This document shows positions 1,252 through 40,721 of a stretch of DNA of 64,000 nt, one piece after another. A program made the position numbers and the translations under genes. Under the pieces are notes generated by a model. That model was not told the DNA's origin, ran no database searches, and worked only from the letters and a program-made list of their open reading frames with translations. Source of the DNA: Candidatus Melainabacteria bacterium 17Bon1m. GTDB lineage: Bacteria > Cyanobacteriota > Vampirovibrionia > Obscuribacterales > Obscuribacteraceae. The DNA lies in NCBI GenBank assembly GCA_032128875.1, contig JAVLKG010000002.1:1056001-1120000 (forward strand). The letters are read 5' to 3'. Positions within the stretch are counted from its first letter, which is position 1. Every line of letters starts with the position of its first letter.

Positions 1252-2115
1252 TTATCTACGGTTTTGCATTCTCATAGTTTCTTGGTCGCCCGTGATGGAT
1301 CTAAATCCAGTCGGACCGCCATTGTTGTGTCCGAATGTGGAAATCTTGTCCACTGTCATACGCCTACTTCCTTGGGGGAATTGCAGCACTGGATTACCAG
1401 CCATTTTTGACACGGTCGCATATACCATCGCGTTATACACAATGCTGCTGCTGTTCGACTGCATGCGCACGTTGATGACACGACCGTCTCTAGTGATGGT
1501 GTAGTTAATCACGCAGACGAGGGGCGGACTCTTTGCCAAGAACGTTTTTGCATAGCCACTAATCTGATTGAAAATTGTTTCTGCCACCCGTCTGTGCCAT
1601 TCGTCCCAGGCGAGTTTCATCTCCTGACCATCAGGATCGTTGGGGTTTTGACGCATTTGATTCATCATTTGTGTGGGCGGCGCCATATCCGGCTGCATCA
1701 TTTGCTGACGGCCTTGCTGCGGAGGCGGCATCTGGTCGCCCATGCCCGGCATACCCTGCCCGTTGAATTGCCCACCATCGTTGGCGCTTAAGTTGTACTG
1801 GGGCGGCATTCCTGTTTTTGCCGCTTGTACTTGAAATGCAGACGGTGGTGCTTCAAAAGTATCTTCCTGCCCTGCGCCGCTGCTGTCGAAAGGATCTCCG
1901 GCATTCTTCATGTCATTGCGATTTAAGCTGGGTCCTTCCTCGGGTCGGATAAAACCCTGGTCGGCGCGCAGTTTGAATGTTTTATTCGGCTGGGTCGCAG
2001 CCTGGACCGGTCCGACCATAAGCTGACCGGCAAACGCGGTGGCCAGTGTTAATGTGGTCACCTTGTGAAGAATGGGTCCGAGACAGGATGATTTAAATGG
2101 CTTCATGGCAGACAA
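1252..2115 (-). CDS. Exported protein with a Q/P/M-rich linker and a C-terminal TonB/TolA-like domain
   Basis: Signal-like N-term (..VQAA). C-term WDEWHRRVAETI..INYTITRDGRVINVRMQSNS..YNA..QFPQG resembles a TonB C-terminal domain. Start may be ATG at 2106. Confidence 0.55.
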   Translation of the reverse strand: MSAMKPFKSSCLGPILHKVTTLTLATAFAGQLMVGPVQAATQPNKTFKLRADQGFIRPEEGPSLNRNDMKNAGDPFDSSGAGQEDTFEAPPSAFQVQAAKTGMPPQYNLSANDGGQFNGQGMPGMGDQMPPPQQGRQQMMQPDMAPPTQMMNQMRQNPNDPDGQEMKLAWDEWHRRVAETIFNQISGYAKTFLAKSPPLVCVINYTITRDGRVINVRMQSNSSSIVYNAMVYATVSKMAGNPVLQFPQGSRRMTVDKISTFGHNNGGPTGFRSITGDQETMRMQNRR

Positions 2116-2291
2116 GTTCGAGTGGTAAGGGTTGTCAGGGTTCCATATATGTAATGTACTCGAAAACGCAAAAAAGTAAATTCGGATACTACGTAGCTGG
2201 AAGTGAGTGTTTAATTAAACGTTTTAGCTCTAAGAACTCATTTAGTAAGGTCGGTCAGTCCCATTTTAGTTGATCCAGGTGACTCGAAAGT

Positions 2292-3116
2292 ATGGAAAAG
2301 ACGAAAGAATTACCCAAAAAACCATGCGGAATTATTGACAGCCATGCGCACGTAGTCAGTGAGTTCTTTGGCGAAGAACGCGAAGAAGTCATTCAGCGTT
2401 CGTTCGACAACGGTGTCGTTCAGATGGTGAATCCAGGCGTAGTTTTAAACAATATCGATGAACTGAAGGATCTTGCCGAGCGCCACGCCAATCTCTTTTT
2501 TGCAACTGGGCTGCACCCGCACGAGGCGAAAGATTGGACGGATAGGTGCGGTGAGGAGATCGAAAAAGCTTCGGCGCATCCTAAGGCAGTAGGTGTGGGT
2601 GAATGCGGTTTGGATTTCTATTACAACAATAGCGATCATGAAAGCCAAAAGAAGGCTTTTGCGGCGCAATGCCGGCTGGCAAAAAAGTTGAACAAACCAG
2701 TTATCGTTCATTGTAGAGATGCATGGCAAGAGGCTTTCGACATTCTCAAAGAAGAGGGCGCCGGCAATTCTCCGGATTCTCTTAGAGGTGTTTTCCACTG
2801 TTTTACTGGTACACCTGAGCATTTACCGAGCATTGCAGAGCTCGGATTCTACGTTTCTTTCTCAGGCATCGTTACGTTCAACAGTGCAAAGACTTTGCAG
2901 GAAGCCGCTAAGCATGTACCGCAAGATAAGATTCTCGTTGAAACCGACTGCCCGTTTTTGGCACCGCAGAAGGTGCGCGGCGCGAAGAATGAACCAAAAT
3001 ATGTTTGGTATGTCGCGGAAAAACTTGCCGAATTGCGGGGCTCGACTGTCGAGTCGATCGCTCAAAGCGCCATGGAGAATACAAGAAAACTCTTCAAATT
3101 GCCAATGCCGGAATAA
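2292..3116 (+). CDS. tatD: TatD family metal-dependent hydrolase/DNase
   Basis: IDSHAH, GLHPH, GECGLD, VHCRDA, FHCFTG, ETDCPFLAP motifs. Confidence 0.95.
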   Translation: MEKTKELPKKPCGIIDSHAHVVSEFFGEEREEVIQRSFDNGVVQMVNPGVVLNNIDELKDLAERHANLFFATGLHPHEAKDWTDRCGEEIEKASAHPKAVGVGECGLDFYYNNSDHESQKKAFAAQCRLAKKLNKPVIVHCRDAWQEAFDILKEEGAGNSPDSLRGVFHCFTGTPEHLPSIAELGFYVSFSGIVTFNSAKTLQEAAKHVPQDKILVETDCPFLAPQKVRGAKNEPKYVWYVAEKLAELRGSTVESIAQSAMENTRKLFKLPMPE

Positions 3117-3149
3117 AAGGGTCAGCGCCTGCGGACGGTTTTTTTGAGG

Positions 3150-3226
3150 GTTTGCGAATTGGGAAAGATTTGCGAACGATTTTGCGAACGATTTTGCGAA
3201 CGATTTGGGAACGGTTTTCGCCGAAC
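3150..3226. repeat. Short tandem repeat (GATTTTGCGAAC-like, 11-12 bp unit) between convergent genes
   Basis: gatttgcgaac / gattttgcgaac / gattttgcgaac / gatttgggaac / ggttttcgccgaac at 3167-3226, plus a partial copy at 3150. Confidence 0.85.
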
Positions 3227-3242
3227 AGTTAAGCCGAATAAA

Positions 3243-4553
3243 TTACTTTGTAGCGACTTGCAAGCGCACCTCGGCACCTTCACCTGGTTGAGATGAAAAG
3301 GTCAGCTGAACAGCGTATAAAGAACGCATGATCTCAGCACGTTGACGCATACTGCTCATGCCCATGCCTCCGGCATCCGTCCGTTCTTCGTCGAGAATTG
3401 CCGCATCGTAGCCGGTTCCGTTGTCGCTCACGACAAAAACGTAGCATCCGTCCGATGGCTCTTCAATTCTGACTGTTATTTCCGAAGCAGAGGAATACTT
3501 CTCTGCATTGTTTAACGCTTCTTGTATGATCCTGAAAATGTGCAGCTGAATCAGCTCGGGCAGTCGCGGTAATTCTGTTTCGACATCAAGATTGCAAGAA
3601 ATGCCCGAACGTTCTTCCACCCTCTCCAAAAGCCCTTCGACGCTGACTTTCAATCCCCAATCTTGTAGGTTTCGAGGCGCGTAATCATTGCAAATGTCGC
3701 GAAGTTTTTCGACGACTTCATCTAGCGTCTCCAGCAATTCATCATTTGTCAGCGCTCGGTCGCCGGACATGTAGCGCTTTAGCATCAACAAATCTGCAAT
3801 CACAGTGTCATGCAAATCCCGGGCAACACGCCTCTTTGTCTCTTCTTGCTGCTGGACAATTTTCCACGCTAAGTTTTGAACTTCCAACTTGTGTTGGTCG
3901 ACTTTGTGCGCGCGTGGGAGTTTTAACGGCGCAACTAACGGCTTTTGCAGGGACGGATCGCTGATGCCTTCCTTGTTTTCTTCGGGATAAAGAGAGCCAA
4001 GACAACGATCGAGCAGGAGCAAGATTTCTTCTACTCGCAACCTCTCACCATTGCGCATCCAGGCTGGACCATATTTTGTGTGCACGAGGTCTAATTTGTA
4101 TTTGAGTCGCGTGTCGAATTCTGCGTAGGAAAGGAAAACCATCTCTTTTGTAGGGATGATGAACATTTCAATGGCTTGAGCGGATGCTCTCACGGAAAGA
4201 CAGAGGGCGTCATTTTTAGCGCGAAATCTATAAAAGCTTTTGGGCAAATTCTTTTTGCTCACCAGCGCGTTTATGTGAGGAGGGCTCTCTGGTTCTTTTA
4301 TGTGCTTCGGTGGCGTCAATTCAAGACTTCTGAAACGCTCTTTCTGTGTTTCGTTTTCGATGCGATGCTTCAATGCGTCAAACAGGCTGTCCATCAATTC
4401 GACCGCGACTAGAATATTCTCACGCCCATCGGTGTCAGTGAGCGCAGCGGCTTGCGCCTTTTTCTCTGCGGGTGCCGAATGTTTTACTTCTAATGACTTA
4501 GCCGGAAAAAGAAGTTTTGCCAGCTTTCGTGCGTCGAATGGAAAGTTAACCAC
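3243..4553 (-). CDS. Soluble sensor histidine kinase, HisKA_3 (NarX-like)
   Basis: H-box RRVARDLHDTV, N-box FRIIQEALNNAEKYS, DNGTG, GGMGMSSM, PGEGA. No obvious transmembrane segment. Confidence 0.92.
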   Translation of the reverse strand: MVNFPFDARKLAKLLFPAKSLEVKHSAPAEKKAQAAALTDTDGRENILVAVELMDSLFDALKHRIENETQKERFRSLELTPPKHIKEPESPPHINALVSKKNLPKSFYRFRAKNDALCLSVRASAQAIEMFIIPTKEMVFLSYAEFDTRLKYKLDLVHTKYGPAWMRNGERLRVEEILLLLDRCLGSLYPEENKEGISDPSLQKPLVAPLKLPRAHKVDQHKLEVQNLAWKIVQQQEETKRRVARDLHDTVIADLLMLKRYMSGDRALTNDELLETLDEVVEKLRDICNDYAPRNLQDWGLKVSVEGLLERVEERSGISCNLDVETELPRLPELIQLHIFRIIQEALNNAEKYSSASEITVRIEEPSDGCYVFVVSDNGTGYDAAILDEERTDAGGMGMSSMRQRAEIMRSLYAVQLTFSSQPGEGAEVRLQVATK

Positions 4554-4559
4554 GGCAGC

Positions 4560-5198
4560 CTATACGCCTCTTGCGCTTATATCCAAACTGCCATAGCCAT
4601 TTTCAACTGCCCACGCAATTAGCTGTTCTCGGGTTTCTAGTCCTAGTTTTAGCAGCAGCGTCTCGCACTGTTTTCTTACTGTAGTAATGGAAGTTGTTCG
4701 TGCGTCGGCGATGTCTTGATACTTCATTCCTCTGGCCATCATGCGCAGCACTTCGTCTTCACTGCGAGTGAGTTTTTTCCAATTGCCTTTCACTTGCTCT
4801 GAGACGATTCCTGTCTCACCTTTTGCTACTCGTCTTATTGTTTCGGCAACCTTTGCCACTCTTTCCGACTTCAGTAAATAGGCTTGAACTCCCATTCCTA
4901 GCACGGTCTGAATGAAAGCCATACGACTCTCCGCTGAAAAGATCACCAGCTTCGAATCTTTCAATTGAGAAAACTTTTCCACCATTGAGCGCGGACCGTG
5001 CGAGCCAGGCAAGTGAAGATCAAGAAGCACCACATCCGGCTTCATCTGTTCGACCATCTGATAGCCTTCATCGCCATCAAGAGATGTGGCAATCACTTTG
5101 ATATCGCTCTCTTGCGACAGCCCAATCGTCAAGCCATCCAGAGTAGCTTGATGATCCTCGATGATCACTACCTTGATAGGCTCTGTCACTTCATTCAC
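4560..5198 (-). CDS. NarL/LuxR-family response regulator
   Basis: IIEDH, VLLDLHLP (phospho-Asp), YLLK, C-terminal LTRSEDEVLRMMARGMKYQDIA HTH. Confidence 0.95.
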   Translation of the reverse strand: MNEVTEPIKVVIIEDHQATLDGLTIGLSQESDIKVIATSLDGDEGYQMVEQMKPDVVLLDLHLPGSHGPRSMVEKFSQLKDSKLVIFSAESRMAFIQTVLGMGVQAYLLKSERVAKVAETIRRVAKGETGIVSEQVKGNWKKLTRSEDEVLRMMARGMKYQDIADARTTSITTVRKQCETLLLKLGLETREQLIAWAVENGYGSLDISARGV

Positions 5199-5217
5199 TC
5201 CAATGTGTGTGTTTAAC

Positions 5218-6717
5218 TTAATTTTCGCTGAGTTTTCGATATCGCTTGCCCAGACTTGTCGCTTTTGCGAAGTGCTCGGAGTTTTTTGAAACTCTCAAGA
5301 GCGAGTCGGCAGCGCCTTGATAGTTTTTCGCTTGGGCAAGTCTTACGCCTAAATTGAAGAGCAAATCGTCAACGTAAGTTTGCTCTTGGGGTTTTAACCT
5401 CTGCCGCTTTATTTTGTCGAGCATTTGGAGCGCTTCGACTGTTCTTCCCTGAGTAATCAACTCTTCAACAGAGCTGAGTGCGGGCGGCGGCTGTTCGGGG
5501 AAAACCAGCTTGAGAGCAGAGAACATGAGGAAGGCTGAGACCAGAGTAAAGACAAAAACGTTGAAGCGGTGTTTTGAACCAGCGGAAAGAATGTCCTTCT
5601 TGCTGGTCGCTTGCTCCGCGTGAGCGGTGTCTTCCCGCATGTCCGGAACGTTAAGTACTTCCTGTGGTGTCGTTATTGCAAACTGGCTTTCTTTCAAAGC
5701 CATATGCACTGCTTTCGTCGAAGCATCGTCGAAAGGAATCCAACCAGATGCTCCGACCGCGCTCTTGTCCTTTTTCTTCTCAAATTTGGACAGAGCCATC
5801 TCGATATCATCGAGAAGCTCTTCAGCATTAGCTTGGCGCTCAAACTTGGTTTTGCTCAGCGCTTTTTTGACTGCTGCTTCCAGACCTGAAGGAAACGGCA
5901 AATCGACACGAATAGCATTCATACTCGGCGGTGGACGATTGACGTGCATAAACATCAAGCCCATGACGTCGTCCGCATAGAAGGGACGCTTGCCTGTTAG
6001 CATCTCAAAAATCGTCACGCCCAGCGAATAGACGTCGCTGCGAATATCCAGCTCTTCGCCTCTGCATTGCTCTGGGCTCATGTATCCGGGCGAGCCGCAG
6101 ACCTTGCCGTCCATAGTCAGAGACCCCGATTGCTCGTTGCGCTCGAACATGAGTTTTGCGACACCGAAGTCGAGCACTTTTACAATTTCGTTTTCGAGGA
6201 CGATGTTTTCCGGCTTCAAGTCGCGGTGTATGACTTTGGCTCTGTGAGCCTCCGCCACGGCGCTGAGAACCTGGCGCATGATAGGCAAAGCCTCATCTAG
6301 AGATATGTGTCCTTTATCGCGAATTCTGCGCGACAGAGACTCTCCTTTGAGAAACTCAGTGACGATATAAGGCTGTTCTTCGCCCAATAAGCCGTAATGA
6401 AAGAGCTTGACGATATTGGGGTGGTTGAGACTGCTGATAGTCTTTGCTTCGCGCAAGAACCGGCGGCGTGAATTGGGATCGGATACACGGCTGCCGTGCA
6501 GGAGCTTAATGGCCATTTGCCGTGATGTTGTTTCATCCAGCGCGCGAAAAACAGCACCCATCGAGCCTTGCCCTAAGAAGGCCAAAATGCGATAGCGGTC
6601 ATCGATATACTTGCCGATAAAAGGGCTCTTTCCGGCATCAGCAAGGCGAACACTGTCGACCGGACAAAGGTCTTTGTCGTCCTCGAAAAGTTCGTTGCAG
6701 GTGTCGCAAAGCTTCAT
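5218..6717 (-). CDS. Membrane Ser/Thr protein kinase with N-terminal Cys motif
   Basis: MKLCDTC..CPVD, GQGSMG, AIK, HRDLKPEN, DFG, GSPGYMSPE; one TM (FNVFVFTLVSAFLMFSAL) and a short helical C-terminal domain. Confidence 0.95.
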   Translation of the reverse strand: MKLCDTCNELFEDDKDLCPVDSVRLADAGKSPFIGKYIDDRYRILAFLGQGSMGAVFRALDETTSRQMAIKLLHGSRVSDPNSRRRFLREAKTISSLNHPNIVKLFHYGLLGEEQPYIVTEFLKGESLSRRIRDKGHISLDEALPIMRQVLSAVAEAHRAKVIHRDLKPENIVLENEIVKVLDFGVAKLMFERNEQSGSLTMDGKVCGSPGYMSPEQCRGEELDIRSDVYSLGVTIFEMLTGKRPFYADDVMGLMFMHVNRPPPSMNAIRVDLPFPSGLEAAVKKALSKTKFERQANAEELLDDIEMALSKFEKKKDKSAVGASGWIPFDDASTKAVHMALKESQFAITTPQEVLNVPDMREDTAHAEQATSKKDILSAGSKHRFNVFVFTLVSAFLMFSALKLVFPEQPPPALSSVEELITQGRTVEALQMLDKIKRQRLKPQEQTYVDDLLFNLGVRLAQAKNYQGAADSLLRVSKNSEHFAKATSLGKRYRKLSEN

Positions 6718-6721
6718 TCTT

Positions 6722-8623
6722 TCACCTGCCGCCCGTCGAATTCAGTTGCCGTTTGTAAGCTGACATCAATCCGCTTGCTGTCTCCTGGTATTGCGAATTT
6801 GCAGGAATTTTCTTCAACGTGTTTATAGCTTGAGTATATTTGTTCTGGTTGGCAAACTTACGTGCAAGGTTCAAATAAGCCGTGTGCAGAGTAGAAGTTT
6901 GAGCCGGCGTCAAATGCCTTGTCACGCGCTGCTGGTTCTCCAGTTTGCTGATGGCTTGCTCTGTGTGTCCTCTCACCAACATTTCGTCGGCAGTATCGGG
7001 TGTGGCAATATCCCATAATTTTAAAATACCGATTCCGCCGACCACAATAATGACAATCAAAGGAAGAATAATTTTCAGCGCACTGGGCGCCCACTCTGAT
7101 TCATTGTGATAATGATCGGCCGCATCCTGGGCGAATGAGCCGGTGCTGCGAACGTCTCTGCTTCTGGCAGTGCCACTGCCAGTGTCTTCATAGCGCTGAA
7201 CCACTGCCTGTGGTGGCGCTCCTGAATCTCGATTTTTGTGGGCGGGTGCAATTGAGTCTTGAGTGTTTTGGTCGTAAGACTGAGCGATAGCTGCAGCGTT
7301 AGCGGGCTGTATGGGCGGCATTTGTTGCGGCTGTTGTACATTGGCGAGCCTTGAAACAGTGTCACCCGAAGTGCCAGGCGCCGCATCGAACGAGGTTTGT
7401 TGCGGCGCATACGCGCTCAAGGAGTCATTGCTCAATTCAATCAAAGAAGCAGCAACAAAGTCTGCGCCGCTCGAATCCGCACCGTTTGTATTTGGATTTG
7501 CGGCGTGCCTGTTTGCCGGTGAGCTATTGTTTTTTGCTTTTACCCCGATGAATACGTCTTGATTGTCGCTGCTGGCGCTGTGCGATTTTTCTTTTGCAGT
7601 CGTGAAAAGTGGTGATGCCTCTTCTCTAACTGCGTTGGGATCGACAATTGGTGCTGCCGGTAAGTTGTTGCTGCACTGTTCCAGTACCGAATTCATTTTA
7701 GCGAGAAGCGCTTCAACACTTTGTGGGCGGGCGGCAGGATCTTTAGCCAGAGTGGAAGAGATCATGTCTTCGAGAACAGACGGAAAATGCAAATCCGGCT
7801 CTACATCAGAGAGTCTTGGGGGTTCGTCATTGACATGCAAATACATCAAGCTGACCAGATCCTTCGCCGAGAATGGTCGCTTGCCTGTCAGTGCTTCGAA
7901 AAGTACGATACCGATCGAATAGATGTCACTGCGACCGTCGACGTCAGAACCACGGCACTGCTCGGGGCTCATGTATGCAGGGCTGCCGCAGATTATTCCA
8001 TCCACAGTTAGCTGCACCGGGTCTACAGTCGAATTATCTGCCATCTTCGCGATGCTGAAATCGACCAGCTTCACAAAGTCTTTGGTGTCTTCTTTTTCGA
8101 CCAATACGATATTGGGTGGTTTGATGTCCCTGTGTACGATTCCTTTTCTATGGGCTTCCGAGAGGGCTTCCAGAACCTGTTTGACTATGGCAATTGCTCG
8201 TTTTGCTTCCAAGCGGCCTTCAGTGGACAGCACTTTCGCCAGGGTAGTGCCGTTGAGAAGGTCCATCACAAAATAAGGCTGACCGTCCGAGGTCATACCG
8301 AAATCGTACAAAGTGAGGAGATTTGGGTGTTCGAGCCTGCTAATCGCTTTTGCTTCTCTGTGAAAACGCACCAGCGATTCCGGATCTGCGCCGAGATAAC
8401 CGTGCAAGACTTTGAGGGCGACCTGCCGACCCAATAGCTCTTGTTTGGCCTTGTATACGCTGCCCACTGCCCCTTTGGCAATCAAAGATTCGACCCGATA
8501 ACGTTCGTCTATCAGCGCGCCAATAAGCGGATCGTTCGGTAAAGGAACGAGAAACGAACCCTCATGCGGGCACAATTCGACCTCGTCGGTGAATTGTTTA
8601 TGGCAGTTGAGGCAAAGCTTCAT
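6722..8623 (-). CDS. Membrane Ser/Thr protein kinase with N-terminal Cys motif
   Basis: MKLCLNC..CPHE, ALK, HRDIKPPN, DFS, GSPAYMSPE; low-complexity linker; TM IILPLIVIIVVGGIGIL. Confidence 0.95.
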   Translation of the reverse strand: MKLCLNCHKQFTDEVELCPHEGSFLVPLPNDPLIGALIDERYRVESLIAKGAVGSVYKAKQELLGRQVALKVLHGYLGADPESLVRFHREAKAISRLEHPNLLTLYDFGMTSDGQPYFVMDLLNGTTLAKVLSTEGRLEAKRAIAIVKQVLEALSEAHRKGIVHRDIKPPNIVLVEKEDTKDFVKLVDFSIAKMADNSTVDPVQLTVDGIICGSPAYMSPEQCRGSDVDGRSDIYSIGIVLFEALTGKRPFSAKDLVSLMYLHVNDEPPRLSDVEPDLHFPSVLEDMISSTLAKDPAARPQSVEALLAKMNSVLEQCSNNLPAAPIVDPNAVREEASPLFTTAKEKSHSASSDNQDVFIGVKAKNNSSPANRHAANPNTNGADSSGADFVAASLIELSNDSLSAYAPQQTSFDAAPGTSGDTVSRLANVQQPQQMPPIQPANAAAIAQSYDQNTQDSIAPAHKNRDSGAPPQAVVQRYEDTGSGTARSRDVRSTGSFAQDAADHYHNESEWAPSALKIILPLIVIIVVGGIGILKLWDIATPDTADEMLVRGHTEQAISKLENQQRVTRHLTPAQTSTLHTAYLNLARKFANQNKYTQAINTLKKIPANSQYQETASGLMSAYKRQLNSTGGR

Positions 8624-8782
8624 GGGACACGAACAAACAGGTCTTTATTTCTTTTTACCCACGCAGGTATGTATTAGTACCGCGCGCGCGTGCGTGAGGC
8701 TTTATCAGACAACAAAAGGCATGCTCAAGCAGATGAGCTTCTAGCTTGAAATGATTCTAGGCCAACCCCTTGCGGCGGCGAT

Positions 8783-11700
8783 CTATCTGCGCAGCTTGCG
8801 ATATTTTTTGAGCAATTCCTTGACTTTCGCTTGATGCGGAGAGTCTGCAGGGATCTTCTTGAGCAGTTTTTTTGCTTCAGTGTAGCGTTTGGACTTCGCC
8901 AGGACTTCGGCTTGCTTGTAGCGAGCGTGATGGAGCAGATCTTCCTCTTCTTCAGTAAGTGGAGCTTTCTTCTCCATCTTTTCCAGAGCATCGATTGCTT
9001 TGGTGTACTTACCTTCGGTGAAACTCTTCTGCGCTGGGCTTATCGCTGCTTCGGCAGGGGCAGCGGGTTTGTCCATTGTCGGCTTGAGAATAAACCAGTA
9101 TCCGGCGCCGCAAGCGATAACCAGTGCGAGTCCAAGGACGATCCAGCGAATATCCATGCCTTGGTTATTGAATGCGCTGCGCATTCGTGAGCGTGTCTGA
9201 TTTGCTCGTTTACCAGGCGCATCCAGGTTGATTTCCAGGTCTCCGCCGCCACGATGCTGAGTCAACTGATGCAGTTGAAGATCAGACGGGCGCATCGACG
9301 AGAGATCAGGCATTTTGGGAGGAGCCGGACGAGCAGCGTGTTTGCCCGTCGATTCCATTGCCATGCGCAGGCGCTCTTGCGTTTGCTCGGCGATATCAAT
9401 TTGCGGAACATTATCCATCGAAGCTGGAGAAGGACCAGGTTGGTTCATCTCACGATTAATAGCTTCACCACGAGCCGCATTGGCAGCAGATGCCTTTTGC
9501 TTCAATTCAGAGCCGCGATTAGCGGCTTCGAGGAAGCGGTTCATCAAGTCTGACGTCAGTGCGTCGTTCGCATCCCCGCTAGCAGCAGCCAATCTGCTTG
9601 CAGCTGAGCCGAGATCAGGTCTTGCATCGGCTGGAATTGCTGATGCAGAGCCCGATTGCAGAGGTGACGCCCCTGATATACCTGCACCGCCCATCGCTGC
9701 CGAAGCGCCCGAAGCGAAGCTTCCACTTTTTGCCGAAGCATCTTGTTCTTTGCGTTTGGCGGCTTCCATCAGTCTGCTTACGGCAGAGGAAATCTTTTCG
9801 TCGCCCACAGGACTCGCCGATGTCGAATCGCTGGATTGGGACCCAGTGGTTTCGGAGCCGGCGCTCGATGCCGCGGACAATCTGTCTTGCGCGCTTCCGG
9901 TTTTGAAGTCAGTGTCGGAGTTAAATCCTGTGTCGGAATTGAAACCGGTGGACTTATTGAAATCGGAATTAAAGCTGGCTGAAGCTGCCGTTTCGAACGA
10001 TTGCGCCGGAAGGTCGGTACGCGAGCGCTTCGGCGGATCAGGACGCTTATCTGGAGGAGTCTGAGCGGGCATATTCGTGCGCGATTGAATGGCACTGAAA
10101 TAGCCAGATGTCTTAGCTTTGGGTTTTTCCGGCGGGTTTGCCGAAGGAAGACCTGTTTTCGATTCATTTGCCAATGGAGATTCTGGCAGTTTGGCCGCAG
10201 GAATTCCGGTCATAGAATCCTTCGGTTTTGCAGCCGGCATGCCGGTCATCGAATCGCTGGGTTTGGGTGGCGGCGGCGCCGATGCTTCCTTGTCACTTGG
10301 AGGCTGCACCTGGGACACTTTGGCAGAAAGCAAGTTCCCAAGACCTGTACTTTTCTTTTGCGATGACTCGAGAGGTGAAGTTGGCTGTGTGGGTGGTTCC
10401 ATAGACTCGGAATCAGGCTCTGGTTTCTTAGCTTCTTCAGCAGGCGAAGCGGCTGGTAATTTTGTCTCTGAAAGCTTACCAGCAGAACCCAAAGATTGCA
10501 TACCCGTCTTCGATTCACGAAGGTTTTCGGGAGGTTTTTCCGGTGACTTCTCTGCGGCCTGTGCGCTGTCGGCGTTCTTCTTCGCAAACAATGCACCTAA
10601 GCCGGTTTTAGACTCCGATGTGGGTGGTTTATCTTTGCCGGCGGCTGCTTGTAAGAGCCTTGCGGCCGCGCCCGTTCCAGCTGAGCTGTCGGTTTCCGGT
10701 TTCTTTGCAGTTGTCTCTGGTTTAATATCCGAAGATTCTTGTTTTAAGAAACTGGCGGCCGCGCTGCCCATAAAATCGGGTTCGGGAGCTTCAGATGACT
10801 CGGACGGCTCTTTATCTTCGAGCTCTGGACCTGGTTGGAAAAGATCGTTGGGACTCGTCGCAAATTGGTCGGCCTCAGGCAGAGCCGCCGTTTCACTTTG
10901 AGATTCTTTCTGCAATTGAGCTGCTTTATTCGCGGCTTGCGCCAGGCGATCAGCCATCGACATAGGAGTTTTGGACTCTGCCAGCTCATCTACACTGGGA
11001 GCAGAAGATAGAAAATCCGGCAATACTTCTTTTTCGTCCGAGCCAAAATTAAATGGCTGCTCATCCGCAACATCTTTAGGCGCGCGCATCAAAAGTTCGC
11101 TTTCATCTAAGGCCGGCTCTATGAGCGTCGAATCGTGACGCTTCGGTCGCAGAGGATCTTGTGGCTTAGGCGCTATGGGTTTTTCCTTTGCTGGCGGTTC
11201 TTTCGGCGGCACAGGCGCAGCAGGTGGAGCTGGTGTAGCCGTTGCAGCTGGCTCCTGCGGTTTTGTTTCTTTAGGTGCAATCTCGTCGGCAACGTCTTTC
11301 GGTGCACGAGTCAACAACTCATCTTCGCTGATGGCCGCTTCAATCAATGTCTGATCGTGACGCTTCGGTCTGAGTTGATCTCCCGGCTTTACTGCTGGTT
11401 TTGTCTCGCTGGCGAGCGGTTTTTGTTCTGCTGGTTTGGAAACAGGCGCAGGCGGTGATGGTGGCGGGGGTGGTGCCGGAGGCGTCGACGCAATTGGTGT
11501 TGGTTTTACAGCAGGCTCAGGCGGAGATTTCGCAACCGGAGCCTGTTGCGGCAAATCGGCAACATCTTTAGGGGCGCGCATCAAAAGTTCGCTTTCATCA
11601 ATTGCGGGTTCGATCAATGTTTGATCGGCGCGTTTCGGCCTGCCAAGATCCGGTGATTTTGGAGGCAATGGTTTTGACTCTTGAACCGCCCTCTCTTTGA

Positions 11701-14161
11701 GCGTCTCGTCCAGTGGTTTTGATGCTTGAGACTGCGCCGGAGCAGCTGGTTTTGCAGGTGCTGGAGGAGCCGGAGGAATGGGGGCCGGCGGCGGAGGTGG
11801 AGGAGGTGGTGGTGGCGCCGGTCCGTCCGCGATATCGTTCGGAACTCGTGTCAGTAACTCATCTTCCGTTATAACTGGTTCAATAAGCGTCTGATCTGCA
11901 CGTTGGCGTTCTGGTGCAGCTGAAGGCTTGGCAGATAGTGGCGCTGCTGATGCCGCGACTTTTGGTGGCTCTTGTTTGCCTGCAGCTTCTTCTTCTTCGT
12001 CACCGAAATCAAGCTCTATTGCAGATTTGAACCGCGACATTGCTTCGTTGACTTCTTGTTTCTTTTCTCCTGCCGCTGGTGGCACGGGTGGTGCACCGGA
12101 AGAGGACTGACCAGCCGGGGATGGTGGCATATTTGGTGCACCAGGCGCTTGTGGCGGAACCGAACCCTGAGCTGGAACGCCCATAGGTTGAGTTCTCTGA
12201 GCCTGTGGTGCAGCGCCGATTTTTTGACCTTGTTGAATTTGTTGCCCTTGCGGAGCGCCAGGAGCACCCGGCGGTTTTGGTGCTGCGCCTTGCGGTTGTC
12301 CAGCGCCGATGCGTTGTGGCTGTCCTGCTCCTGGGGCGCCTGGTGCACCGGCAACTGGGCGTGCTGGGGCTCCTGGCTGTGGGGAGGGTGGTGTCATCTG
12401 TGGTGCAGAACCAGAACTTTGAGCATTGGGTGCTTGCGGAATTCCGCCTTGATGATTCGGCACTGCGGCCGGCTGCCCTGGCTGTTGAACAGGATTTTGA
12501 CCGGACTTTTGGACAGCAGGGACCGCAGGACCACCTTTGCTGGGAGGTTGCACAAGTGGTCTGCGTGGTTGGAGCGCAGGATTTGGCAATGGTGGTGTCG
12601 CCTGTGGTGCAACCGCGGCAGCCGGCGTCGGCGTGGGAGGTGGAGGTGGTGTCGCAGGCGGCGGACTTGGTGGTGCTGCTTGCGCTTGCTGCGAAGAAGC
12701 ATAATTGGTGACGGATGGACGAGCCGGTGCCGGCGCTTCCAGCATAGGAGAGATTGTCGGCGTTATACCAAGACCGGGCAACGGAGAGTATCCCGGCGGA
12801 GGAGGGGGCGGAGGTTGTCCTGCCTTGAAAATCGGCGCATTTGGGTCTTCTCCCCATCCGCTTTCAAAGGAAGACTCGCCATTTGAATGAACTTCTTGCC
12901 CTTGACCCTTCTTGAGCCATTTTTCCGGATCTAGTGGAGCAGGCGCTGCTGGAGCGTCGTCGCGTTGCGGTTCCAGCGCCCAGAGATCGTCTCCAATTTC
13001 ACCAGCCAGCGCGCGCGCTGCTTCATTGGTATATGTCATGACCGGCAGTGGTGGGGGAGGTGGTGGTTGAGGGAGATCGTCTCCCCAGGGAATCACTTGA
13101 CCCCCGGACCCGCCGGTAGTAAGCCGCTCTTCGGGCTGAAATTCAAAAGCATCGACCTTGACACTGTCCGTCTTTTTGGTCGGACGCGGCGAAGGAGGCG
13201 GACTCTTGATGCCTTTGCAAGCATCCTTGAGGGCTCTCCAGAATTCATTGATATCGGAGTATCTGGCGTCAGGCTTTTTCGCTAATGCTTTTGCAATGAC
13301 ACTTTCCAATTCATCAGGAAACTTGAGGTCGCTGCGAACGGCGCCCAATTTTATCGGCGGTTCGGTGACGTGTGCGAGCATGAGTGCTCGGTGTTCTTCA
13401 TGCTGGAATGGTCTCTCGCCGGTCAGCATCTCGAAAACCATGACAGCCATAGAATATATGTCACTGCGAGCATCGAGCGGCATGCCCTGGCACTGCTCCG
13501 GGCTCATGTATGCGGGACTTCCCGCTACTGTTTTCGGACGCCCGACTTGAGCGGATTTGGCTTCAGGTACATCGGCAATACCGAAGTCGAGAACTTTTAC
13601 GTAGTCATTAACATAGTCGTCACCATCGCCCATTTCTTCCAGAACAATGTTTTCCGGCTTGATGTCACGGTGAACGATGTCTTGCGAATGAGCTTCTGAA
13701 AGCGCATCGCAAACTTGCTCCACGATTGGCAGTGCGCGAGACGGGTGCAGGAATTTGCGCTCTTTGATCAGGTCGGCAAGAGTTCCGCCTTCCAGGTAAT
13801 CCATGACCAGATAAGGCTGTTGGTCATCAGTGATGCCGTGTTCCCAGAGGGTGATAATGTGCGGATGGCGCAATTTGCTTGCCGCTGCAAACTCTCTCAA
13901 GACTCTGTCCAAAGAACCAGAGTCGGCTCCCAAGAAGCTGTGCAGCACTTTGACAGCCACTTCTCGTCCCATCATCAGACGGGTCGCTTTGTACACGATG
14001 CCGCTCGAGCCTTTGCCGATGACAGAATCGACAACATAACGGTCGTTGATCAAAGCGCCGATAAGTGGGTCTTTACCGACCGACTCAAGAACGGAATTGT
14101 CCCTTGGACAAGCCGCCATTCCGTCGGCAAAGTACTGATTGCATCTGAGACAAAGCTTCAT
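8783..14161 (-). CDS. Very large membrane Ser/Thr protein kinase with a Pro/Ala/Ser-rich linker
   Basis: MKLCLRC..CPRD, GKGSSG, AVK, HRDIKPEN, DFG, GSPAYMSPE; roughly 1350-aa low-complexity linker; TM WIVLGLALVIACGAGYWF; helical C-term. Confidence 0.93.
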   Translation of the reverse strand: MKLCLRCNQYFADGMAACPRDNSVLESVGKDPLIGALINDRYVVDSVIGKGSSGIVYKATRLMMGREVAVKVLHSFLGADSGSLDRVLREFAAASKLRHPHIITLWEHGITDDQQPYLVMDYLEGGTLADLIKERKFLHPSRALPIVEQVCDALSEAHSQDIVHRDIKPENIVLEEMGDGDDYVNDYVKVLDFGIADVPEAKSAQVGRPKTVAGSPAYMSPEQCQGMPLDARSDIYSMAVMVFEMLTGERPFQHEEHRALMLAHVTEPPIKLGAVRSDLKFPDELESVIAKALAKKPDARYSDINEFWRALKDACKGIKSPPPSPRPTKKTDSVKVDAFEFQPEERLTTGGSGGQVIPWGDDLPQPPPPPPLPVMTYTNEAARALAGEIGDDLWALEPQRDDAPAAPAPLDPEKWLKKGQGQEVHSNGESSFESGWGEDPNAPIFKAGQPPPPPPPGYSPLPGLGITPTISPMLEAPAPARPSVTNYASSQQAQAAPPSPPPATPPPPPTPTPAAAVAPQATPPLPNPALQPRRPLVQPPSKGGPAVPAVQKSGQNPVQQPGQPAAVPNHQGGIPQAPNAQSSGSAPQMTPPSPQPGAPARPVAGAPGAPGAGQPQRIGAGQPQGAAPKPPGAPGAPQGQQIQQGQKIGAAPQAQRTQPMGVPAQGSVPPQAPGAPNMPPSPAGQSSSGAPPVPPAAGEKKQEVNEAMSRFKSAIELDFGDEEEEAAGKQEPPKVAASAAPLSAKPSAAPERQRADQTLIEPVITEDELLTRVPNDIADGPAPPPPPPPPPPAPIPPAPPAPAKPAAPAQSQASKPLDETLKERAVQESKPLPPKSPDLGRPKRADQTLIEPAIDESELLMRAPKDVADLPQQAPVAKSPPEPAVKPTPIASTPPAPPPPPSPPAPVSKPAEQKPLASETKPAVKPGDQLRPKRHDQTLIEAAISEDELLTRAPKDVADEIAPKETKPQEPAATATPAPPAAPVPPKEPPAKEKPIAPKPQDPLRPKRHDSTLIEPALDESELLMRAPKDVADEQPFNFGSDEKEVLPDFLSSAPSVDELAESKTPMSMADRLAQAANKAAQLQKESQSETAALPEADQFATSPNDLFQPGPELEDKEPSESSEAPEPDFMGSAAASFLKQESSDIKPETTAKKPETDSSAGTGAAARLLQAAAGKDKPPTSESKTGLGALFAKKNADSAQAAEKSPEKPPENLRESKTGMQSLGSAGKLSETKLPAASPAEEAKKPEPDSESMEPPTQPTSPLESSQKKSTGLGNLLSAKVSQVQPPSDKEASAPPPPKPSDSMTGMPAAKPKDSMTGIPAAKLPESPLANESKTGLPSANPPEKPKAKTSGYFSAIQSRTNMPAQTPPDKRPDPPKRSRTDLPAQSFETAASASFNSDFNKSTGFNSDTGFNSDTDFKTGSAQDRLSAASSAGSETTGSQSSDSTSASPVGDEKISSAVSRLMEAAKRKEQDASAKSGSFASGASAAMGGAGISGASPLQSGSASAIPADARPDLGSAASRLAAASGDANDALTSDLMNRFLEAANRGSELKQKASAANAARGEAINREMNQPGPSPASMDNVPQIDIAEQTQERLRMAMESTGKHAARPAPPKMPDLSSMRPSDLQLHQLTQHRGGGDLEINLDAPGKRANQTRSRMRSAFNNQGMDIRWIVLGLALVIACGAGYWFILKPTMDKPAAPAEAAISPAQKSFTEGKYTKAIDALEKMEKKAPLTEEEEDLLHHARYKQAEVLAKSKRYTEAKKLLKKIPADSPHQAKVKELLKKYRKLRR

Positions 14162-14395
14162 GTGTTGCGGTTTTAGGCTTCCTGTAGTTTCAGCTACTTA
14201 GTGATAAATGCTTGCCCCGGGTGTGATTCTGTTCCGGCTCACGCCATATTGATTAACGCCAGCAACAGGTGAAGGAACCGTGCCCCCTCATTTAAGATAC
14301 CCTGTTAATAAATCAATATTCGTCATAAGACAAAAAACAAAGGTTTTTCACAGGTTAAATTCGCTGTTCCGCCACTTGACCGCCTCTCAAGGCCT

Positions 14396-15595
14396 TCAGA
14401 TTGTGGAAACTTTGCTCTGGCGAGCATACCAGTCTCCAGGCAAGCGCTCGACAATACCCGCCAACTCAAGCATGGTAAGGGTCGCAGACAGCTCGCCTGC
14501 GGACATTTCCAGCTTTTGGCTCAAAACATCAAAGTGCACCGGCTCGCCCGTTACCAGTTCGAATACTTCCTTTTCGCGACCAAAAAGTTCGACCATAGTC
14601 GGTACTTCTCGCGGCGTCGGAACTGATACCCAGTTGAGAGCATTCAAAACGTCAATGTAATTCATGACCAGTTGAGCTTTATTGGCCGCAATGAGCTTAT
14701 TGCAACCCATCGACATCGGAGCGTCGACGCGCCCCGGTATCGCGAAGATTTCACGGCTTTGTTCAAAACCGATGTCAGCCGTTATTAAGGAACCGGAAGT
14801 TGCTCCTGCCTCAATTACGACTACACCTTTGCTTAGTCCGCTGATAATTCTGTTGCGGGCGGGAAACCGCCAAGGTTCAGGCTTTGTACCGGGAAAGAAT
14901 TCGGAAAGAACAGCACCATGAGTACCGTCGATCAGACCGTTGTAGAGGGGTTTGTTTGAAGTCGGGTAGCAAAGATCTGGACCACTAGCCAAGACCGCTA
15001 CAGTCCTGCCACCACCTTCGATGGCTCCCCAGTGGCAAAGCGAATCAACACCAACTGCCATGCCACTGACTACCGTTGCACCGGCTTGCGCCAATCCACG
15101 GGCGAACTCCTTAGCCAACCTTTGTCCGTAAGTTGTCGGTCTGCGAGTGCCGACAATAGCAATCGAATGATCCAATTCCTGCGGAGTGAGCTGCCCTTTC
15201 ATGTAGAGGACAATCGGAGGATCGGCGATTTCACGCAGCCGAGACGGATAGAGCGGATGGTTCAACGGCAATGCTGTAACGCCAGTTTTTTCAAGCGTTT
15301 CTAATAACTGATCGAAATTCACTTCTTTGCGCTTTTGGACGATTTGCTCAATTTGTTCGGTCTTTAGCCAAGGCAAAGTCCTAAGCTCGGCGGCGCTTGC
15401 GATCCATGCCGCTTCGATAGACAAAAAGTGGTCGAAAAGCATGCGTAGCCGCTTTCCACCAAGACCAACTCCGGACAACTGGTCGAACGCCAGCCAGTAT
15501 GGCAACTCACGAGTCAGTTGTTGTCGCAACTCTTTTTCGTCGCGGTTGGTAATTTCGCTGAAAACTTCATCGTCCGGCAGTTGGCCGCAACTCAT
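14396..15595 (-). CDS. dprA: DNA-processing protein DprA
   Basis: YPSRLREIADPP, IAIVGTR, VVSGMAVGVD, FPARNRIISG, SGSLIT, C-terminal winged helix. Start moved to ATG 15595, which follows GAGGAG. Confidence 0.97.
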   Translation of the reverse strand: MSCGQLPDDEVFSEITNRDEKELRQQLTRELPYWLAFDQLSGVGLGGKRLRMLFDHFLSIEAAWIASAAELRTLPWLKTEQIEQIVQKRKEVNFDQLLETLEKTGVTALPLNHPLYPSRLREIADPPIVLYMKGQLTPQELDHSIAIVGTRRPTTYGQRLAKEFARGLAQAGATVVSGMAVGVDSLCHWGAIEGGGRTVAVLASGPDLCYPTSNKPLYNGLIDGTHGAVLSEFFPGTKPEPWRFPARNRIISGLSKGVVVIEAGATSGSLITADIGFEQSREIFAIPGRVDAPMSMGCNKLIAANKAQLVMNYIDVLNALNWVSVPTPREVPTMVELFGREKEVFELVTGEPVHFDVLSQKLEMSAGELSATLTMLELAGIVERLPGDWYARQSKVSTI

Positions 15596-15845
15596 GTCGA
15601 CTCTCCTCAGGCCCAAAACCCAATAACTCTTACTGTCGTGTCCCCCGGACAAGTTGGAAAACAGGTGCTCGCTGATTGTGACAGACCCTACATGTTTAAC
15701 GCATCTACAAATAATTTATCGGTCGCCCACTGCCCCAGGTTGGGATTCTTCTCCCCACTACCAACCATCCCTAACTGCATATAAGCATGTCTACGTAATT
15801 TCACCAGTTACAGTCCCTTGCGCCAATTTTATGATTCCAAGCATC

Positions 15846-16586
15846 ATGAAAAATCCGCGATACATTGTCATCGCGCGCCTGGGCGCTCTCATTGTCCTGG
15901 CGGCAAGCTTATCCACCGCCGTCATGGCGCAGGAGCCCGCCGCCAGCCGTCCTGCACCTTTCAAACTGAACGCTCAAGTCAACCAAAATCCGCAATTGAG
16001 CCGTGAGGGGGGCGATATGATCGTCTCTCATCTCTCTCCTGCAAATCAGCAACAGACAAGCGGACTAATTCCGCCCGGTGTGCCTGCTCAGGCAAAAGTC
16101 GCTCCTGGTCCCTTAGGGTTCAATCCAAATTCTCCACTTATCGGCAATGCTCGAGCTGTTGCCGAGTCCCAACAAGCTCCTCAGGCCTATCTAAGCGAGT
16201 ACGACGTTGACTGGTCCAGTTGGATTAGCCAAATGGCCGCTCGTTGGCATTACAACCTGAAGAGGTTGGAAGCACAATCGAATATTTGCTTTGTTACTGA
16301 ACGCCCTGCTTTGATTCAATTTACCTGTGCCTCGAATGGGCAGGTCGGCAATTTTTCTCTAAAACAGTCGTCCGGTATATATGCGTACGACCAGTTGCAG
16401 ATGTTAGCATTGAGTCAGGTTACCCCTTTGCCGCCATTTCCCAAGGGGACCAGATGCGCCACCATTACTCTTGTACAGGGTTGGGAATCGCATGCAAAAC
16501 AACCGGGAGAAAACGGTTTTGATCCAAGAGCGTTTGGACGGCGCTTTCCAATGGAGAAAGTCCAGCAATGGGTAAGGTCAAACTAA
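15846..16586 (+). CDS. Exported protein with a C-terminal TonB/TolA-like domain
   Basis: Signal peptide (..AVMA-QE). DVDWSSWI..IQFTCASNGQV..KQSSG..YDQ..LPPFPKG. Start chosen at ATG 15846; the ORF track opens at 15654. Confidence 0.6.
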   Translation: MKNPRYIVIARLGALIVLAASLSTAVMAQEPAASRPAPFKLNAQVNQNPQLSREGGDMIVSHLSPANQQQTSGLIPPGVPAQAKVAPGPLGFNPNSPLIGNARAVAESQQAPQAYLSEYDVDWSSWISQMAARWHYNLKRLEAQSNICFVTERPALIQFTCASNGQVGNFSLKQSSGIYAYDQLQMLALSQVTPLPPFPKGTRCATITLVQGWESHAKQPGENGFDPRAFGRRFPMEKVQQWVRSN

Positions 16587-37806: not shown

Positions 37807-39297
37807 TCAATAAGTGCAAGTTAGAGCCTGCATTTTTGCAGATGCTTGGAGGTATTCAACTTGAGCATCGACAAGTTTTATCTTGGCGTCAAACAATTGA
37901 CGTTCGCGCTGAGTTACAAGAAATACTGTACTGTCGCCGAAGTTGAAACGCTTTTTCTCACCCACATAAACAGCTTCCGACTTTTCTACTTGCTTGGTGA
38001 CTGCAAGAAATTTTTGATGCGACGCATTGAGAGTTGCCGCTGCGCTCATCACCTCTGCCACCAGGCGCTGTCTTTCTGAAATTTCTTCAGCGTTTAACGC
38101 ATCAATATTGAAGTGTGCGGACTTTATTCTTCCTCTCGCATTGCGCAAGTAAAGGGGAGAGCTGAAGGTGACCTGGGTGCGAAATACGTTGCCAACTCCT
38201 GAAATACCGCCGTCATATCCATAGGTAGCGAGTGCGTCGGCTTGAGGCAGGAGATCATTTCTGGCAAGCTTCAATTGCAGTTTGGCCTGCTCTTTTTCCA
38301 ATGCAATTCGCTTTAACTCTGGACGGCGGTCAACTGCCTTCCGCACGCTTTCATCAATCTCAGCAGCGGTGAACTCTTGAGGCGTAGGCCACAATTGAGG
38401 AACATTCATTTCATCAAGGAATGGAGCCGGTCTTCCACTGCTATCAAATAGATAGACGGCTAATTCGTAAGTCGCTTTTTTGAACTCAAGCTCTGCAGCA
38501 ATTTTGTCGGCGGTCCGTCGCTGGAAATCTTCCTCTGCTTCCGTGACTTGAATTTTCGGCAAGTCCCCGGCGCTTGAACGCTTGTCTGCTGCCGAGACGA
38601 GAAATTCGGATAGTTGTACAAGACGTCGTGCGACCTGCATTTTTCTCTGAGCCCCGACCCAATTCCAGTACGCAATGTTGGCGCGCAACAGAATGTCGAG
38701 ACGATTGAGCGAAAAAGCTTGAGTTGCAACTGGCTCGCCAATTTTGGCCAATTTTTCGTTTGTCTCACGCTCATTGATTATAAAGCCGCGCAAAAGCGGA
38801 ACAGCAACACCACCTCCAAACTCGCCTATAAAGCCTGTTTCAATGTAAGGTGATTGCGATGTTCTTGGATTGAAACGATAGGTGCCAAGTAAACTTATCC
38901 CAGAGCGAGTGGGAATTTCGATTGCTGGCTGGTTATAGATTACTCTCTTGAGAGTGTCGAATTTCGATGTGTTTTGCATCCACGCATAACCGTTGAGCGT
39001 TCGGATTACGGGATCGAATACTCCTTGCACTTCCATGCGCCGCGCAGAAGCAACTCGTCGGCGCGAGTCCGCCGCGTCTATGCGCGGATAATTGTTGTCG
39101 ACAGCTGAAAGAAAAATCGATGGCGTGAGGATCGTACCGCCTTGTGTGATCGTTATTGAATAGTCCGCTTTCGTTCTGGCACGTGGGGCAAAACCAAGCG
39201 GTTCATAAATGCCGTCCGCGCATTGAGCAGGCATGACTGAGCAGGTCAGGGACCAGACGAGAAGCAAAGCAAGAACAACGCGAAGGGGTTTCATCAA
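37807..39297 (-). CDS. TolC-family outer-membrane efflux protein
   Basis: GVFDP, VPLLRG, AYWNW, RRPEL, NDLLPQ, FNFGDSTVFLVTQRE. Confidence 0.9.
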   Translation of the reverse strand: MMKPLRVVLALLLVWSLTCSVMPAQCADGIYEPLGFAPRARTKADYSITITQGGTILTPSIFLSAVDNNYPRIDAADSRRRVASARRMEVQGVFDPVIRTLNGYAWMQNTSKFDTLKRVIYNQPAIEIPTRSGISLLGTYRFNPRTSQSPYIETGFIGEFGGGVAVPLLRGFIINERETNEKLAKIGEPVATQAFSLNRLDILLRANIAYWNWVGAQRKMQVARRLVQLSEFLVSAADKRSSAGDLPKIQVTEAEEDFQRRTADKIAAELEFKKATYELAVYLFDSSGRPAPFLDEMNVPQLWPTPQEFTAAEIDESVRKAVDRRPELKRIALEKEQAKLQLKLARNDLLPQADALATYGYDGGISGVGNVFRTQVTFSSPLYLRNARGRIKSAHFNIDALNAEEISERQRLVAEVMSAAATLNASHQKFLAVTKQVEKSEAVYVGEKKRFNFGDSTVFLVTQRERQLFDAKIKLVDAQVEYLQASAKMQALTCTY

Positions 39298-40718: not shown

Positions 40719-40721
40719 TGA

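Follow-up and report, generated by a model that had tools for sequence, protein, structure and literature searches.

The five-gene row and its products

Five co-oriented open reading frames (ORFs) occupy positions 3243-14161 on the minus strand of a 64,000-nucleotide stretch of the genome of Candidatus Melainabacteria bacterium 17Bon1m, an uncultured non-photosynthetic relative of the cyanobacteria (contig JAVLKG010000002.1, positions 1,056,001 to 1,120,000; hereafter the window, from whose first letter all nucleotide positions given without a contig are counted). In reading order they encode three Ser/Thr kinases, STK1 (8783-14161, 1792 aa), STK2 (6722-8623, 633 aa) and STK3 (5218-6717, 499 aa), a response regulator, RR (4560-5198, 212 aa), and a histidine kinase, HK (3243-4553, 436 aa), and the row probably represents a lineage-specific, co-transcribed signalling module that was built from two older units. 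What is new at this locus is the domain family of the HK input domain, called Nd here, which is located at the N-terminus of HisKA_3 kinases and at the C-terminus of Hanks kinases, and also occurs as a stand-alone protein beside either. The first-pass annotation had described three membrane kinases co-oriented with a NarL-type regulator and a soluble histidine kinase; ORFs, Pfam matches and a scan for transmembrane (TM) segments agree on this composition, and the gaps of 159, 4, 19 and 6 nt from STK1 to HK are reproduced from the coordinates.

By the criterion of the Pkinase profile (PF00069, cut-off 31.7 bits), STK1, STK2 and STK3 are Hanks-type (eukaryotic-like) Ser/Thr protein kinases, with matches of 173.2, 162.7 and 176.3 bits and E-values of 9.1e-51, 1e-47 and 1e-51, respectively. 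The plan ascribed to them earlier (MKLCxxC..CP, kinase, linker, TM, helical tail) is found in all three: MKLC..C is followed after ten residues by CP, the kinase domain spans residues ~42-305, and a linker leads to a single predicted TM segment and a helical, weakly TPR-like C-terminal tail of 94-100 residues. As had also been proposed, it is mainly the linker that sets them apart, with ~75 residues in STK3, ~205 in STK2 and ~1335 in STK1. The tails are mutually homologous (E 1e-5 to 5e-3), and the homology extends to just one further kinase of the genome, a fourth paralogue with the same plan at C9:183459-185159. The term paralogous holds only in a deep sense, the pairwise identity of the kinase domains being 43-50 %, from which the paralogy must be old. 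Basic residues ahead of the TM segments suggest a topology in which the Cys motif and kinase domain are cytoplasmic, the linker would be disordered, and the tails lie outside the membrane. The three proteins do not qualify as PknB/Stk1-type PASTA kinases, since NF033483, with a cut-off of 450 bits, scored 278-313 bits with only the kinase part aligned, and Pfam matched no PASTA repeat in any of them. The assembly (7.55 Mb, 35 contigs) has 131 Pkinase matches. By crude ORF calling and hidden Markov models (HMMs) built for this analysis, which also underlie the counts of REC-kinase fusions and of two-component adjacency given below, the CxxC..CP motif precedes the kinase domain in 27 of 128 kinase ORFs.

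Five catalytic motifs were considered, namely the Gly-rich loop GxGxxG, the VAIK Lys, HRD..K..N, DFG and (A/S)PE, and all five are present in STK1 and STK3. In STK1, which reads GKGSSG, VAVK, HRD, DFG and SPE at these sites, the CxxC..CP motif (residues 4-19) is followed by the kinase domain (residues 42-302, nt 13256-14038), the ~1335-residue linker rich in Pro, Ala and Ser (nt 9197-13201; 17.5 % P, 15 % A), the TM segment (residues 1674-1692, nt 9086-9142) and a tail of 100 residues (nt 8786-9085) with a weak TPR_19 match at 1715-1786. The linker contains four copies of a ~30-residue repeat, RPKR.DQTLIEPAI.E.ELL.RAPKDVAD, at residues ~752, 844, 934 and 1010 (nt 11012-11929), spaced 75-90 residues apart; three to four copies are kept in 4/4 same-genus orthologues, and a regular-expression search gave zero matches in two distant-genus orthologues. 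STK2 (kinase domain nt 7706-8500; TM residues 516-534, nt 7022-7078, followed by a 99-residue tail) retains HRD, the catalytic Lys and SPE, its Gly-loop reads AKGAVG and DFS replaces DFG. These variants are kept in 9/9 orthologues. The role of STK2 may be regulatory, or its activity low. STK3 (kinase domain nt 5803-6594; TM residues 387-405, nt 5503-5559, followed by a 94-residue tail) is the best conserved of the three, with 75-99 % identity within the genus and full-length orthologues at 39-44 % identity in three other genera. Its linker motif GWIPF (residues 325-329, nt ~5731-5745) is invariant in 13/13 orthologues, including those at 40-44 % identity, and may be a docking motif.

RR consists of a Response_reg domain (residues 10-121, E 4.6e-15) and a GerE helix-turn-helix (HTH) domain (residues 142-197, E 1.7e-7) and is a response regulator of NarL/FixJ (NarL/LuxR) type; amongst NCBIfam equivalogs none was over the cut-off, the best being MctR with 93 bits against 300. 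In HK, Pfam and Foldseek place a HisKA_3/HATPase_c core at residues 225-436 (nt 3246-3881), HATPase_c matching with 48.7 bits (cut-off 26.4) and HisKA_3 with 22.9 bits, just below its cut-off of 24. His248 is invariant in 13/13 aligned HKs, and a Foldseek search with the whole model retrieved DesK and VraS as best matches (E 5e-10), although only the catalytic core was recovered. HK is a histidine kinase of the HisKA_3 class, to which DesK, NarX, DegS and VraS belong. A Kyte-Doolittle scan showed no TM segment in RR or HK, in line with the first-pass description of a soluble kinase, and since HK lacks a membrane sensor its input should be cytoplasmic. By their domains, RR and HK resemble an ordinary pair of phosphorelay partners.

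Judged by their spacing, the five genes are probably co-transcribed. The 159-nt spacer between STK1 and STK2 (8624-8782) carries a weak terminator-like hairpin at 8738-8723, found by consensus scan only (5-bp stem, three GC pairs), and may be a boundary between transcription units; there may be up to three sub-units, STK1, STK2-STK3 and RR-HK, possibly with read-through. Promoter-like sites were at chance level (8 against 8.3 expected), and terminator-like sites (34 against 19.3 +/- 4.3 expected) fell mostly within genes. Three runs labelled RNA-Seq (X2-X4) contained all sampled words of the region, however the 15 kb of window positions 1500-16500 lie there within contigs of 54-83 kb and are evenly covered, as in a DNA run of the same sample. 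The runs therefore contain genomic DNA, and transcription is not readable from them.

The Nd domain family

Nd is a predicted alpha/beta domain that extends over residues ~41-187 of HK (nt 3993-4433), and its conserved core reads ..YR.R....LS.R....IE.F.IP..E...LS..E...R.K..L......W. No Pfam or NCBIfam family is matched by residues 1-225 of HK, which agrees with the earlier remark that the N-terminal domain was unrecognised. The family is rare: a HMMER pass with HK residues 1-230 over 1.84 billion cluster representatives retrieved 20 proteins at E<=1e-3, and amongst the 17 matches that were scanned, 15 have HATPase_c behind the match and two are without any Pfam domain. Nd is seemingly restricted to Obscuribacterales. 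A description of it was not found in Pfam, NCBIfam, PDB sequences or the ESM Atlas, and the literature was looked at by taxon, not by a domain that has no name; by title and abstract nothing on Obscuribacter and protein kinases concerned the subject, which is no proof of absence in print.

The AlphaFold2 model of the domain alone, built from 29 aligned sequences (predicted local distance difference test, pLDDT, 86.7; predicted template modelling score, pTM, 0.81), opens with a long N-terminal helix and closes with a C-terminal one, and between them lies an antiparallel sheet of six strands into which two helices are inserted. For this model Foldseek gave no PDB match at E<=1e-3, the Nd profile reached a best E-value of 0.48 against PDB sequences, and the ESM Atlas held no usable match. 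With VIA-align the best match is CyaY (4jpd_A; Z 8.4, root-mean-square deviation 3.2, 100 residues aligned), and frataxins make up five of the top ten matches, the four besides CyaY at Z 6.4-7.2, whereas the tool's own note gives Z 7-8 as the range typical of unmatched models. As in frataxin and CyaY, two long helices lie on one face of an antiparallel sheet; the Nd model differs by two extra helices (model residues 55-64 and 98-107), and Nd has no sequence match in Pfam or the PDB that would join it to them. The model thus weakly suggests a frataxin-like sandwich, with no claim of family membership and with no function implied by the fold. No Ser or Thr conserved over all Nd contexts could be named, the frequent ST before the conserved Trp being KN in the clade of this HK, and a complex prediction for STK3 residues 1-345 with Nd, both given as alignments, scored 0.00 and 0.13, where the mark is 0.32, a result that counts neither way.

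Seven ORFs of this genome match the Nd profile. Two are histidine kinases with adjacent regulators (HK of the row and C1:109947), and the other five stand alone (293-442 aa) and have no Pfam domain. One of the stand-alone genes lies 137 nt behind a leucine-rich-repeat (LRR) kinase gene on the same strand, and another, a weak profile match, is head-to-head with a TPR-kinase that has the Cys motif. In the first of these neighbourhoods (L122:520-7219, corresponding to G000 C1:1100520-1107219) the LRR-kinase lies between the gene of an 863-aa sugar-nucleotide enzyme and the Nd gene; in genomes G017 and G014 (L132, L133) the gene of an 856-aa sugar-nucleotide enzyme directly adjoins the Nd gene, and therefore the LRR-kinase was inserted beside Nd in the present lineage. 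In other genera a stand-alone Nd gene (~270-310 aa) is often located directly downstream of an Nd-containing histidine kinase (L057, L059, L060, L061, L064, L078 and L130), which suggests an Nd-Nd partnership of the kinase with a small accessory protein. One Nd histidine kinase, P0019 (866 aa), has an extra N-terminal DUF4388 (171-259) ahead of Nd (386-608) and the kinase core (642-843).

The strongest item tying Hanks kinases to the input domain of HK is a 648-aa protein of genome G014, in which a Hanks kinase domain (8-276) is followed by Nd (332-548). Six of the seven database relatives of its Nd part also carry Pkinase (52-99 % identity, 639-689 aa), the seventh being a fragment. Nd, in contrast to REC, is a rare domain, which makes this fusion more specific as a link than the REC-kinase fusions considered below.

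Kinase genes are also found near Nd genes more often than elsewhere. Five further genomes gave 37 Nd matches, for which 33 contexts were fetched and the Nd gene was recovered by ORF calling in 32; around these 32 loci, 13 of 189 genes at offsets 1-3 encode kinases compared with 5 of 227 at offsets >=4 (Fisher one-sided p 0.018). Over all six genomes, a kinase is within three genes of the Nd gene or fused to it in 14/42 cases (background in this genome 8.8 %) and adjacent or fused in 7/42 (background 3.1 %). Nd genes are accordingly near kinase genes about three- to five-fold over background, a figure that is overstated in that related genomes are treated as independent, the background comes from one genome and the HK that prompted the comparison is counted. 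The Cys motif is present in 5/13 kinases near Nd, 0/5 far from it and 27/128 genome-wide, numbers that are too small to use.

Conservation and history of the locus

The row is flanked upstream by dprA (14396-15652, minus strand) and downstream by tatD (2292-3116, plus strand), both assigned by Pfam scan. Searches with HK gave some match in 27 of 41 genomes and a full-length orthologue in 12/12 same-genus genomes searched. Within the genus, the order dprA, STK1-STK2-STK3-RR-HK, tatD and a tonB-like gene is present at all loci that are long enough (L013, L014, L016, and L017 in mirror orientation), and the contig-limited loci L015 and L018-L020 are partial and consistent with the five-gene order; L042-L049 come from the same genomes as earlier loci and are not independent evidence. 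The sister genus (G015, L021) also holds the five-gene order with an HK of 51 % identity, STK1 being cut by the contig end, beyond which dprA would lie. Collinearity extends to the flanking genes, so that the five genes are not singled out by this conservation.

The gap between STK2 and STK3 is 2-4 nt in 9/9 loci and that between STK1 and STK2 117-216 nt throughout. In same-genus loci STK3 and RR are separated by 19-41 nt, and RR and HK by 6 nt or overlap, and these tight gaps hold even though the identity of HK falls to 73 %. STK3 and RR lie 148 nt apart in the sister genus, so the RR-HK pair may have its own promoter. The convergent spacer between HK and tatD contains, at 3155-3218 of the window, ~4-5 tandem copies of a 12-nt unit that are not present in the same spacer of eight related loci, one of them with an HK 97 % identical; the 10-nt core of the unit has 31 occurrences in the genome and is in tandem only at this site.

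Three more distant genera of the family have STK1 and STK3 at the collinear locus or a fragment of it, and neither STK2 nor the RR-HK pair is located there. The locus of G018 reads dprA, STK1 (1973 aa), STK3, a 258-aa ORF and tatD, where the 258-aa ORF matches none of the stand-alone Nd genes; that of G021 reads dprA, STK1, STK3 and tatD; and on the short contig of G022, STK1 and STK3 are followed by two small ORFs. The STK1 orthologue of G021 (L028:4996-10352) is broken within its kinase domain, giving two ORFs (214 and 1571 aa), owing to either a frameshift or an assembly error. Loss of gene order, which the first-pass annotation had named as a refuting observation, is therefore only half seen: the order is kept in the genus and its sister genus, but the three distant genera keep only STK1-STK3.

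In a maximum-likelihood tree of 24 HKs of the family, those of the cluster form a clade with 100/100 support, and their sister group consists of the HKs of G021 (C4:1328k) and G022 (C136), with support of only 82/82. The RR-HK pair of G021 is a likely orthologue of the cluster pair, to judge from this tree; it is located 37 kb from the STK1-STK3 locus of that genome, behind a glycosyltransferase gene, and the outgroup HK of G022 is on another contig than its STK locus. Outside the cluster lineage, 29 related RR-HK loci were compared, and a clear kinase directly adjoins the pair on the same strand only at L074; at L051 and L055 a kinase-like pentapeptide-repeat protein lies beside RR-HK. As for conserved genes downstream of the distant RR-HK homologues, only stand-alone Nd genes are common. 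On this distribution the cluster is young and not ancient, being intact in one genus of Obscuribacterales and its sister genus. STK1 and STK3 would be old residents of the DprA-TatD locus and STK2 a later arrival, and most simply, the resident STK1-STK3 pair and a mobile RR-HK pair were joined in the common ancestor of the two genera.

Proposed coupling of the kinases to the two-component pair

That Hanks kinases and two-component systems engage in cross-talk is already established, and a joint gene row is an uncommon, unsurprising variant of it. In B. subtilis the cytosolic kinase DegS is phosphorylated by Hanks kinases at Ser76 of its input domain, with stimulation of the transfer to DegU (Jers et al. 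2011, PMC3033389). DegS/DegU and HK/RR are alike in combining a cytosolic kinase without TM segment with a LuxR/NarL-type regulator, and the control point proposed for HK is the N-terminal input domain, as in DegS. The two systems resemble each other only in architecture and in the mechanism proposed, the input domain of HK, blank in Pfam and NCBIfam over residues 1-225, being unrelated in sequence to that of DegS. Three membrane kinases share the gene row here; the Hanks kinases of B. subtilis are not known to be encoded beside degSU.

Further precedents, so that both HisKA_3-type kinases and NarL-type regulators are amongst the published Hanks-kinase substrates, come from a review (PMC12189002), in which M. 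tuberculosis PknL phosphorylates NarS and E. faecalis IreK phosphorylates CroS, histidine kinase activity being raised, and many response regulators are listed as Hanks-kinase substrates. IreK is a transmembrane kinase, as predicted for STK1-3, however it has a PASTA ectodomain where these have a TPR-like tail of ~95 residues.

The first-pass suggestion that the membrane kinases supply input to the two-component pair gains from the tight spacing in two genera, the published precedents and the occurrence of Nd fused to or near Hanks kinases, and it loses from the youth of the locus, an adjacency at background level and the weakness of the fusion argument discussed below. The reading we favour, at a probability of about 0.4, is a control of the DegS kind, in which phosphorylation of Nd in the soluble HK, of the regulator or of both by the membrane kinases would adjust the phosphorelay. 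Their related tails would let the three kinases respond to a signal from the envelope or periplasm, STK1-3 would then phosphorylate HK in its Nd input domain, and/or RR, and this phosphorylation would tune His-Asp phosphotransfer and through it transcription by RR. Such an arrangement is preferred because the input of HK is cytoplasmic, three membrane kinases are encoded upstream, Nd accompanies Hanks kinases and the precedents fit.

The first-pass annotation had also taken a fusion elsewhere in the window as a Rosetta-stone hint of this coupling. The fusion is real: a 545-aa protein (45201-46838, minus strand) joins REC (20-130), GerE (165-208), a CxxC..CP motif and a Hanks kinase domain (Pkinase, 271-536), and over the kinase module with its Cys motif the protein shares 38 % identity with STK3. 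A co-oriented PAS-HisKA-HATPase_c histidine kinase (42728-44602, minus strand, Pfam) is located just downstream and is the likely cognate of the REC domain of the fusion. Three more REC-kinase fusions of the genome (G000 C2:79951, C4:351094 and C2:773821) likewise join both systems in one chain, two of them with a histidine kinase gene within two genes, and fusion architectures of this type have been catalogued before. Judged by domain order, they resemble response regulators in which a Ser/Thr kinase serves as output; as the kinase is at the position of the output domain and a PAS histidine kinase lies downstream, the flow would be from His-Asp to Ser/Thr. Whereas the row keeps its parts separate, the fusions imply His-Asp control of a kinase, the opposite of the direction proposed in the first-pass annotation. 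Beyond the histidine kinase gene, three co-oriented genes at 37807-42515 (minus strand) encode an outer-membrane efflux protein, an HlyD-type adaptor and an ABC transporter, a set that is type I secretion or efflux-like.

Several of these observations weigh against the DegS-like reading. The Rosetta-stone hint is weak, REC and Pkinase being promiscuous domains and the REC-HTH part of the fusion only 25 % identical to RR, and it suggests the reverse flow. The conserved DFS and AKGAVG cast doubt on the activity of STK2, and the fourth paralogue with the same plan has no two-component neighbour. Moreover STK1-3 are themselves without Nd, and a sensor domain can, like PAS and GAF, be common to two classes of kinase without any need for cross-talk. 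The main rival is a juxtaposition without direct cross-talk, in which RR-HK (and STK2) landed by an old kinase locus and are perhaps read through or co-regulated, the targets are separate, and Nd is a cytoplasmic ligand or state sensor recruited by both kinase classes; we regard it as a serious alternative, if a somewhat doubtful one. In its favour, the association is young, the adjacency is at background level and the proximity is patchy. The ancestral locus lacked RR-HK, the probable orthologous pair is found elsewhere without these kinases, and outside the lineage the pair hardly ever has a kinase as its neighbour. Same-strand adjacency of kinase and two-component genes within 200 nt applies to 3/126 kinase genes (2.4 %) and 124/5981 others (2.1 %), and with 131 Pkinase matches in the genome a kinase neighbour is easily acquired by chance. 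The 148-nt gap of the sister genus, the compactness of the Nd alpha/beta sandwich, which is like many small binding domains, and the uneven proximity of Nd to kinases, inflated as its overall statistics are, agree with this; the proximity is not conserved amongst orthologues, and per multi-member similarity group a kinase is near in 2/8, 1/5, 2/4, 0/3 and 1/2 cases. Mere juxtaposition is harder to reconcile with gaps of 4, 19 and 6 nt that are kept across the genus despite the divergence of HK, with the three- to five-fold excess of kinases near Nd genes, and with the position of a soluble HK, without other recognisable sensor, directly behind three membrane sensors.

Signals could also run the other way, RR controlling transcription of the kinase row as an autoregulated operon, or the phosphorelay modulating kinase activity as in the REC-HTH-kinase fusions. 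The four fusions, the histidine kinases near three of them and the STK3-like kinase module with its Cys motif are what recommend this option, which we consider improbable, as the output of the cluster RR is DNA-binding with no kinase, its resemblance to the REC-HTH of the fusion is low, RR-HK is at the 3' end of the row and the promoter-like sites are at chance level. A receptor formed amongst the kinases themselves appears very improbable as an account of the row. Here the related tails would mediate a hetero-oligomer with STK2 as a regulatory or pseudo-kinase and the STK1 linker as a scaffold, and RR-HK would be one client or unrelated. Homologous tails in only four kinases of the genome, the 2-4 nt between STK2 and STK3 in every locus, the variant motifs kept throughout STK2 orthologues and the conserved repeats of the STK1 linker would suit it, as would the documented cross-phosphorylation amongst bacterial kinases (PMC4166321). 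Three genera, however, keep STK1-STK3 without STK2, and such a receptor is compatible with the DegS-like reading and not exclusive of it.

A bolder extension of the DegS-like reading, unlikely in our estimate, would make Nd a dedicated coupling domain, that is, a frataxin-like module docked on or phosphorylated by Hanks kinases. HK would then be a relay for the membrane kinases, Nd proteins beside or fused to a kinase would be its regulatory partners, and a modular wiring from Ser/Thr to His-Asp signalling would have evolved in Obscuribacterales.

Most of what is known about cross-talk of Hanks kinases with two-component systems comes from scattered work on substrates in Firmicutes and Actinobacteria, where the pairings need phosphoproteomics. 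If the DegS-like reading is true, partners encoded in one gene row would provide a genetically defined model of the wiring between the two systems, and the model would be all the stronger with a receiving domain that is rare, distinct and elsewhere fused to Hanks kinases. Should the coupling not be real, a smaller result would last, namely a new cytoplasmic input domain family common to histidine and Ser/Thr kinases. If it is real, the row would offer a first functional handle on the large kinase complement, ~130 in this genome, of the non-photosynthetic relatives of cyanobacteria.

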